Source of the DNA: Escherichia phage vB_EcoM_PTE-Eco15
DNA length: 64,000 bases
Sequence record: PQ352352.2
Direction: 5' to 3' (one strand)
Shown: in pieces, positions 26,181 to 26,847 of the stretch
How positions within the stretch are numbered: the stretch's first letter is position 1
Layout of the letters: the number at the start of each line of letters is the position of its first letter
Program-made: the position numbers and the translations under genes
Notes under the pieces: generated by a model
Told to the model about the DNA's origin: nothing
The model's input: only the letters and a program-made list of their open reading frames with translations
Databases searched by the model: none

Positions 26181-26847
26181 ATGTTCTATTACACTTATAA
26201 AATAACAAATAAAATTAATAATAAAATTTATATAGGCGCCCATTCAACTGAAAATTTAGATGATGGATATATGGGTTCTGGTAAATTATTAAAAAGAGCC
26301 CAAGATAAATATGGTATAGAAAATTTTTCTAAAGAAATATTAGAGTATTTTGATGATAAAGAATCTATGCTTGAGTCAGAAAAGAATATTGTGACTGAAG
26401 AGTTTTTAAAGCGCCCTGACGTTTATAATTTGAAATTAGGTGGTGAAGGTGGTTGGGACCATTTAAACACTGAAGAATATTTGGATAAAAAGAAAGAAGC
26501 TTCCTTAAAAGGAGTTGCCGCTTTTAAAACCAGATTTGAGAACGACCCAGGCCTTAAAGAAAAATATCGTAAAATGGGTTCAGAAAGGTTTAAAACAGCT
26601 TTGGGATAATCCTAAGTATAGAGAGAAATTTTCAAATACTAAATCTTTCTTGGGTAAGTCCCATTCAGATGAAACTATTAATAAAATGAAAGAATCTCAC
26701 GCCAGAAATAAACACCAACAAGGTGAAAAGAATTCCCAATTTGGTATGATGTGGATTCATTCATTAGATGAAAAAGTTTCTAAACGTATTAAGAAAACTG
26801 ACCCAATTCCAGAAGGATGGTTTAAAGGTCGAAAAATGAAATTTTAA
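26181..26847 (+). pseudogene. segB: segB-like GIY-YIG homing endonuclease interrupted by a +1 frameshift
   Basis: 142-aa ORF (GIY-YIG YYTYKIT...IYIGAH) and 110-aa ORF (NUMOD3 GKSHSDETINKMKES) in adjacent frames; removing one A from the A4 run at 26592-26595 gives a single 221-aa frame. Confidence 0.6.

Follow-up and report, generated by a model that had tools for sequence, protein, structure and literature searches.

The segB locus and its surroundings

The window, meaning the whole 64-kb stretch of DNA that was analyzed, comes from the genome of a Tequatrovirus (T4-like phage), and the segment runs opposite to the T4 map. Over a 12-kb stretch around segB, its best match to known phages (e.g., fPS-2 and ESh30) is only ∼96% identical; thus, the genome of the window is absent from the phage collection. 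Regarding its position, segB lies inside a tRNA cluster, directly upstream of tRNA-Arg, and the order tRNA-Ile(CAU)/segB/tRNA-Arg(UCU) is common to the window and to T4 (NC_000866), where segB spans 71253-71918 (666 nt, 221 aa) between tRNA-Ile and tRNA-Arg. Seven tRNA genes, including the one with the CAT anticodon, were located at 25569-26139 with ARAGORN and Rfam. In T4, the tRNA cluster and segB are transcribed as one precursor of ∼1.75 kb; the SegB site of this phage is 27 bp long and includes the conserved T-psi-C element of tRNA genes, GGTTCRANTCC, the recognition motif that the tRNA genes of the cluster hold (PMC2330249). The features of the locus in the window are the following:

25569-26066, + strand: remaining tRNA cluster, with Gln, Leu, Gly, Pro, Ser, and Thr (ARAGORN, Rfam)
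26068-26139, + strand: upstream tRNA with anticodon CAT, called tRNA-Met by ARAGORN; the syntenic T4 gene is annotated as tRNA-Ile
26170-26174, + strand: Shine-Dalgarno-like AGGAG, 6 nt 5' of the segB ATG, read from the sequence
26181-26847, + strand: segB pseudogene, whole locus, 667 nt versus 666 nt in intact alleles (alignments, PHROG 314)
26181-26609, + strand: ORF1, 142 aa, with SegB residues 1-138 (GIY-YIG and part of the linker), a tail TALG, and a stop codon
26515-26847, + strand: ORF2, 110 aa, with a TTG start, in the +1 frame relative to ORF1
26592-26595, + strand: run of four A with a one-base insertion, flanked by T and C; AAA (the Lys138 codon) in relatives
26596-26847, + strand: out-of-frame remnant, SegB residues 139-221, the homologous part of ORF2
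26853-26927, + strand: downstream tRNA-Arg (TCT), which begins 5 nt past the segB stop codon (ARAGORN, Rfam)

On the 3' side of tRNA-Arg, the stretch 26928-27274 aligns with the T4 region of the small stable RNAs rnaD and rnaC (species 2 and 1 RNAs); an Rfam search of this stretch returned no family at the gathering score.

The two reading frames, their overlap at 26515-26609 in adjacent frames, and the AAAA at 26592-26595 were reproduced exactly as reported in the first-pass annotation, as was its statement that removal of one A restores a 221-aa frame: with one A deleted, the locus becomes a 666-nt, 221-aa ORF containing SERFKQLWDNPKYREKF. The slip-site sequence of the window is GAAAGGTTTAAAACAGC, GGTTCAGAAAGGTTTAAAACAGCTTTGG. 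Alignment with the intact segB of SHFML-26, IME540, and PP01, each annotated as a single 666-nt CDS, gave one gap in 667 columns (TTT-AAAC versus TTTAAAAC), and the same lone gap was found against T4, fPS-2, G8, and the intact ERR12422635 allele; the extra A is the sole indel with respect to eight intact or related alleles. The alignment to the T4 segB nucleotide sequence, which had been proposed as a check, therefore places its single gap in the A-run. An uninterrupted ORF of ∼221 codons with both catalytic and C-terminal parts is not present at the locus in the window, as ORF1 stops at 142 aa. The two halves are not a chance pair of ORFs, since a single gene, unbroken in relatives, is matched by both. 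The locus is a segB pseudogene and not a functional member of the SegB group.

As for the identity of the repaired product, it aligns gaplessly over 221 aa with SegB of T4 (84% identity), T6 (81%), SHFML-26 (95%), and ERR12422635 (97%), and it matches PHROG 314, "homing endonuclease", with E = 8e-51. What had been described as a segB-like gene split by a one-base shift is, given the synteny with T4 and the gapless 84% identity to its protein, the segB ortholog itself. The first-pass annotation had also assigned GIY-YIG to the N-terminal half and NUMOD3 to the C-terminal half; the former assignment holds, with ORF1 scoring 29.5 bits for Pfam PF01541 (gathering score 22.6), whereas NUMOD3 (Pfam PF07460, residues 158-174) reaches only a sub-threshold 14.6-15.7 bits (gathering score 20.4), although this motif has been reported in the C-terminal part of T4 SegB (PMC2330249). 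Y17 and G19, the catalytic residues mutated in T6 SegB (PMC13096335), are invariant in the alignment with the T4 and T6 proteins. A search of PDB sequences with the C-terminal part gave no meaningful match, and I-TevI was not detected, so that the role of this part in DNA binding rests on the literature.

The last 41 residues (codons 181-221) are invariant among T4, T6, SHFML-26, ERR12422635, and the window. At the DNA level, the last ∼130 nt of segB (26721-26847) are identical in the window, SHFML-26, and the four metagenome contigs aligned, and some alleles that share this identical 3' end differ by up to ∼20% further upstream. A co-conversion tract by tRNA-Arg, a constraint from the processing of the tRNA-Arg precursor, or conserved target recognition are possible reasons for this invariance.

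Occurrence and authenticity of the extra A

A comparison of the 81 nt that surround the insertion with phage records gave 59 matching records, none of which has the AAAA allele; none is 100% identical, and each of the matches listed covers 80 bases versus 81. It was likewise absent from IMG/VR, JGI metagenome contigs, and GTDB genome contigs, with IMG/VR being a poor denominator because it offered one contig only with the intact pattern. In the Logan assemblies of public sequencing runs, instead, the exact 142-aa protein with the tail ...SERFKTALG is on record: contig SRR29581963_7212 (993 bp) is 100% identical to window positions 25911-26903, AAAA included. The 198-aa segC variant of the window is on record in SRR29581963 alone, in a 1199-bp contig that matches the window at 100% along its whole length (within 17001-19000, minus strand); the neighboring 153-aa protein is not on record. 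The co-occurrence of the segB and segC variants indicates that this run contains the phage of the window, and the recovery of the four A from reads by the k-mer-based Logan assembler excludes an artefact of assembly or polishing. It is probable, however, that the reads behind this contig are those from which the window was built, and a systematic artefact at the level of reads or template would be compatible with this; the AAAA allele has been seen in this one sample only.

Regarding the sample, the contigs of the window's phage in SRR29581963 are only ∼1 kb long, contig numbers run in the thousands, and the ends of contig SRR29581963_7212 fall inside tRNA-Ser and tRNA-Arg. These features suggest either low coverage or a mixed sample in which several T4-like strains have tRNA sequences in common; the 64-kb window could then be a consensus across strains.

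The AAAA is very likely a real allele. The alternative, which is improbable, is that the true genome carries AAA and an intact 221-aa segB, the additional A being a homopolymer over-call. The privacy of AAAA to this genome (none of the 59 phage records has it, nor do the other collections) would agree with an error, as would the fully open repaired frame, the downstream sequence identical to an intact allele, and a second private extra A in an A-run within the same window, at 52152-52157. Against it, the independent k-mer assembly has the same AAAA in its 993-bp contig, and the 1199-bp contig is equally identical to the window; base-perfect agreement over 2.2 kb implies accurate reads, and homopolymers of four bases are not error-prone on such platforms. 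With the second pipeline giving the same AAAA from SRR29581963, the weight moves from sequencing error to a real, recent inactivation.

The window was also audited for split frames by tblastn against T4 and fPS-2; this test took the place of a raw blastn indel audit against the same two genomes, which gave 150 indels with a length not divisible by 3, most of them pairs of gaps that compensate each other in diverged regions. No essential gene was found interrupted over the 64 kb, with the gp17-gp1 block (∼24 kb), gp46, gp47, gp55, gp49, e, and nrdD covered, so that the assembly is not riddled with homopolymer errors. The other sites flagged by the audit were in tRNA, RNA, or intergenic positions, or were places where T4 is the deviant sequence (vs.5, nrdC.6, a-gt.2, segC). 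A third A-run candidate, at 4884, is a common natural allele and gives no evidence of systematic over-calling. The second private frameshift is an A6 at 52152-52157 in place of A5; it splits a 71-aa DUF7205/phrog_2112 gene (52032-52267), the homolog of fPS-2 g085c located just downstream of nrdC, into a 42-aa ORF and a remnant. All 483 matching phage records have A5 at this position, as do 20 of 20 further loci; a cross-check with the neighboring genes in SRR29581963 returned contigs from other samples, all of them A5. The two private shifts could be real mutations, both in genes that are dispensable, or could come from a mild bias toward over-calling of homopolymers. About 60% of the window is presumably non-essential, a rough estimate from the T4 gene map, and the chance that both shifts fall in dispensable genes is then about 0.4, so that their location does not discriminate between the two readings.

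As for the age of the event, the segB of the window has three private states with respect to a panel of eight alleles, namely, the extra A and substitutions at 26354 and 26420, both of which are synonymous (D58 and D80). Downstream of the shift, none of the 252 nt differs from the intact ERR12422635 allele; in the upstream 414 nt at the 5' end the nearest allele is that of SHFML-26 (12/414 differences), and ERR12422635 differs there at 28 positions. The gene is thus a recombinant mosaic of known allele types. No decay has accumulated since the shift, which makes the event very recent, or an artefact.

Consequences for SegB and alternative readings

The best explanation, and a likely one, is that segB of this T4-like phage was very recently inactivated by a +1 slippage at Lys138. 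A slippage mutation would have lengthened AAA to AAAA at this codon; translation from the normal start would then yield a 142-aa protein that keeps the GIY-YIG catalytic domain and misses the 83 C-terminal residues, which are expected to be needed for DNA targeting and activity in vivo, by analogy with I-TevI and from the experiments on T6 SegB. The phage would keep an occupied, homing-immune segB site together with intact flanking tRNA genes; SegB-driven homing and marker exclusion in co-infections would presumably be lost, and so, presumably, would the SegB-driven segmental amplification of tRNA and anti-defence loci.

These expectations draw on two characterized orthologs. T4 SegB activity was demonstrated with the full 666-bp ORF (221 aa), so that the characterized protein does not end where ORF1 ends, an outcome that would have overturned the first-pass annotation; in T4 x T2L crosses, the segB locus is inherited at near 100%, for which the integrity of segB is absolutely required, and the segB region is dispensable for T4 growth (PMC2330249). 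In T6, segmental amplification of tRNA-Tyr and anti-defence loci requires the nuclease activity of SegB (Y17/G19), and the overexpressed wild-type protein is toxic, whereas a variant without the last 28 aa is non-toxic (PMC13096335). The 28 C-terminal residues missing from this variant, SegB-short, are invariant in the gene of the window, whose product lacks 83 residues, those 28 included; as T6 SegB without the 28 residues is non-toxic, this points to a null allele. By analogy with the T6 ortholog, 81% identical, the enzyme activity would be lost.

Reinitiation, or an enzyme assembled from two parts, was considered and rejected, as the ORF2 frame offers no plausible start preceded by a Shine-Dalgarno sequence.

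A different segB allele, found in metagenomes, bears on the readings that follow. It is T6-like and is split into 195 aa and 33 aa by another one-base A insertion (A5 to A6), CACCAAAAAAGG:

2394-3102 of locus L011: split T6-like segB, ENA ERZ28646692 scaffold_13, 170.5 kb

The 33-aa C-terminal SegB fragment has a gene call of its own on five contigs, namely, this 170.5-kb ENA metagenome scaffold and contigs of four Logan runs; the allele, seen in at least five contigs, shows no differences among the four that cover it in full, the fifth having the 3' fragment, and it occurs in none of 91 isolate phage records. In the stretch of the A-run, the nearest isolates, GRNsp7 and LF73P3, differ from it solely by one missing base, which implies the intact A5 form. 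The existence of this second segB allele with one added A indicates that such decay happens in nature. In the 0-frame it reads CAA AAA AGG TGA, with a slippery Lys codon, the rare AGG, and a stop codon, and it resembles known +1 contexts, being more suggestive of such a site than the context of the window; AGG is the rarest codon of E. coli.

Two readings would preserve a function for the split gene. That the GIY-YIG domain has been co-opted, either alone or along with a C-terminal fragment translated on its own, is hardly credible: ORF1 does retain an intact catalytic domain (Y17 and G19) with a normal Shine-Dalgarno sequence and start, but the split arrangement is conserved nowhere, the ORF2 frame has its first ATG at 26686, without a Shine-Dalgarno sequence, and would give 53 aa only, and no sequence change after the frameshift points to adaptation. 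T6 SegB deprived of its 28 C-terminal residues shows, moreover, no toxicity (PMC13096335). The other reading, very improbable, is that full-length SegB is still made, either because tRNA-Lys shifts by +1 on AAA-A or because slippage occurs now and then, possibly as a way of throttling a toxic nuclease. On AAA-A, tRNA-Lys can re-pair perfectly in the +1 frame, which would restore the exact native sequence, and a weak Shine-Dalgarno-like AAGG is located 3 nt before the AAA codon, a spacing that is as in prfB; the independent metagenome allele also needs a +1 shift on AAA (AAA AGG TGA). SegB is a toxic protein, and the phage is believed to keep its expression in check (PMC2330249, PMC13096335).

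The slip contexts argue otherwise for the window. They are AGG UUU AAA ACA in the window and CAA AAA AGG UGA in the metagenome lineage, the latter with the sequence CACCAAAAAAGGTGAAAAG from this allele. The next 0-frame codon in the window, ACA (Thr), is neither a stop nor rare, and a gene for tRNA-Thr(UGU) is present in the phage itself; intact alleles have the same AGG-TTT-AAA context, which, hence, did not evolve for shifting; and a run of four A is too short for efficient transcriptional slippage. Compared with programmed +1 frameshifting of the prfB type, the likeness lies in the overlapping 0 and +1 ORFs, the re-pairing of a P-site AAA, and the AAGG 3 nt upstream; the segB of the window differs in that the A-site holds no stop or rare codon, the arrangement is not conserved, and the stimulatory context already exists in intact alleles. 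The two-frame arrangement occurs in none of the 59 records for the allele type of the window and in none of the 91 for the metagenome one, and all annotated segB orthologs examined are single 666-nt ORFs. The order given in the first-pass annotation, which had placed recent inactivation or a homopolymer error above +1 translational frameshifting, is thus maintained, as the two-frame arrangement is not conserved. Equally far from probable is the idea that changes in the length of the segB A-runs are more than decay and serve to throttle a toxic endonuclease or to switch it reversibly. The two independent split alleles, that of the window and that of the metagenomes, each carry an added A for which a +1 slip of tRNA-Lys on AAA-A would compensate exactly; if the idea were true, SegB, a driver of the amplification of anti-defence genes, could be made in small or conditional amounts through +1 frameshifting at a low level or through back-slippage in replication.

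Relation to known seg genes and meaning for T4-like phages

With recent inactivation as the preferred reading, the segB of the window can be set beside known systems. It shares with T4 SegB (NP_049745, 221 aa; Brok-Volchanskaya et al. 2008, PMC2330249) the locus, the length after repair, and the GIY-YIG domain; it differs in that its frame breaks after Lys138, with a predicted product of 142 aa without the C-terminal 83. With T6 SegB it has 81% identity over 221 aa, the same Y17 and G19, and identical last 28 aa, whereas tRNA-Tyr, which adjoins segB in T6, is absent in the window. A parallel to its truncation is T6 SegB-short (Chihara et al. 2026, PMC13096335), which also lacks the C-terminus and for which the non-toxic character is established; SegB-short, however, arises from segmental amplification junctions and lacks 28 aa, while the gene of the window is a single-copy gene that lacks 83 aa because of a frameshift.

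As regards the other seg gene in the window, the segC homolog (17715-18311, minus strand) is one intact GIY-YIG ORF of 198 aa, with a faint NUMOD3 match and weak matches to the I-TevI DNA-binding Pfam. The annotation of the T4 reference gives segC 140 aa, followed by gene 5.3, in place of the one 198-aa ORF of the window; it is a 1-nt G difference at ∼17905 that makes segC look split in the T4 reference.

Defunct homing endonuclease genes are documented in T4-like phages, e.g., I-TevIII of T4 (PMC2790892; review PMC2988022). The segB of the window resembles these degenerate genes in lying in a dispensable region, in its knockout by a simple mutation, and in the insertion site that is still occupied; it differs in showing no decay beyond one base. 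The same pattern is seen in the metagenome segB allele with its added A and in the split annotation of T4 segC, and such inactivation is how mobile genes of this selfish kind commonly end. If the allele is real, it stands at the first step in the cycle of invasion, fixation, degeneration, and loss.

In conclusion, the locus is an ordinary, recent pseudogene of a well-characterized free-standing GIY-YIG homing endonuclease. For annotation, it should be labeled as a segB pseudogene, or flagged for verification at the level of reads, rather than entered as two hypothetical proteins or as a "GIY-YIG endonuclease". SegB was recently shown to drive the segmental amplification of tRNA and anti-defence genes, which allows the Septu, OLD, and ToxIN defences to be escaped (PMC13096335); the prediction for a T4-like phage that is naturally segB-null is, therefore, that it is poorer at such rapid escape, and poorer also at excluding the tRNA-region markers of co-infecting relatives. 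If an isolate exists, it would be a useful natural control strain.
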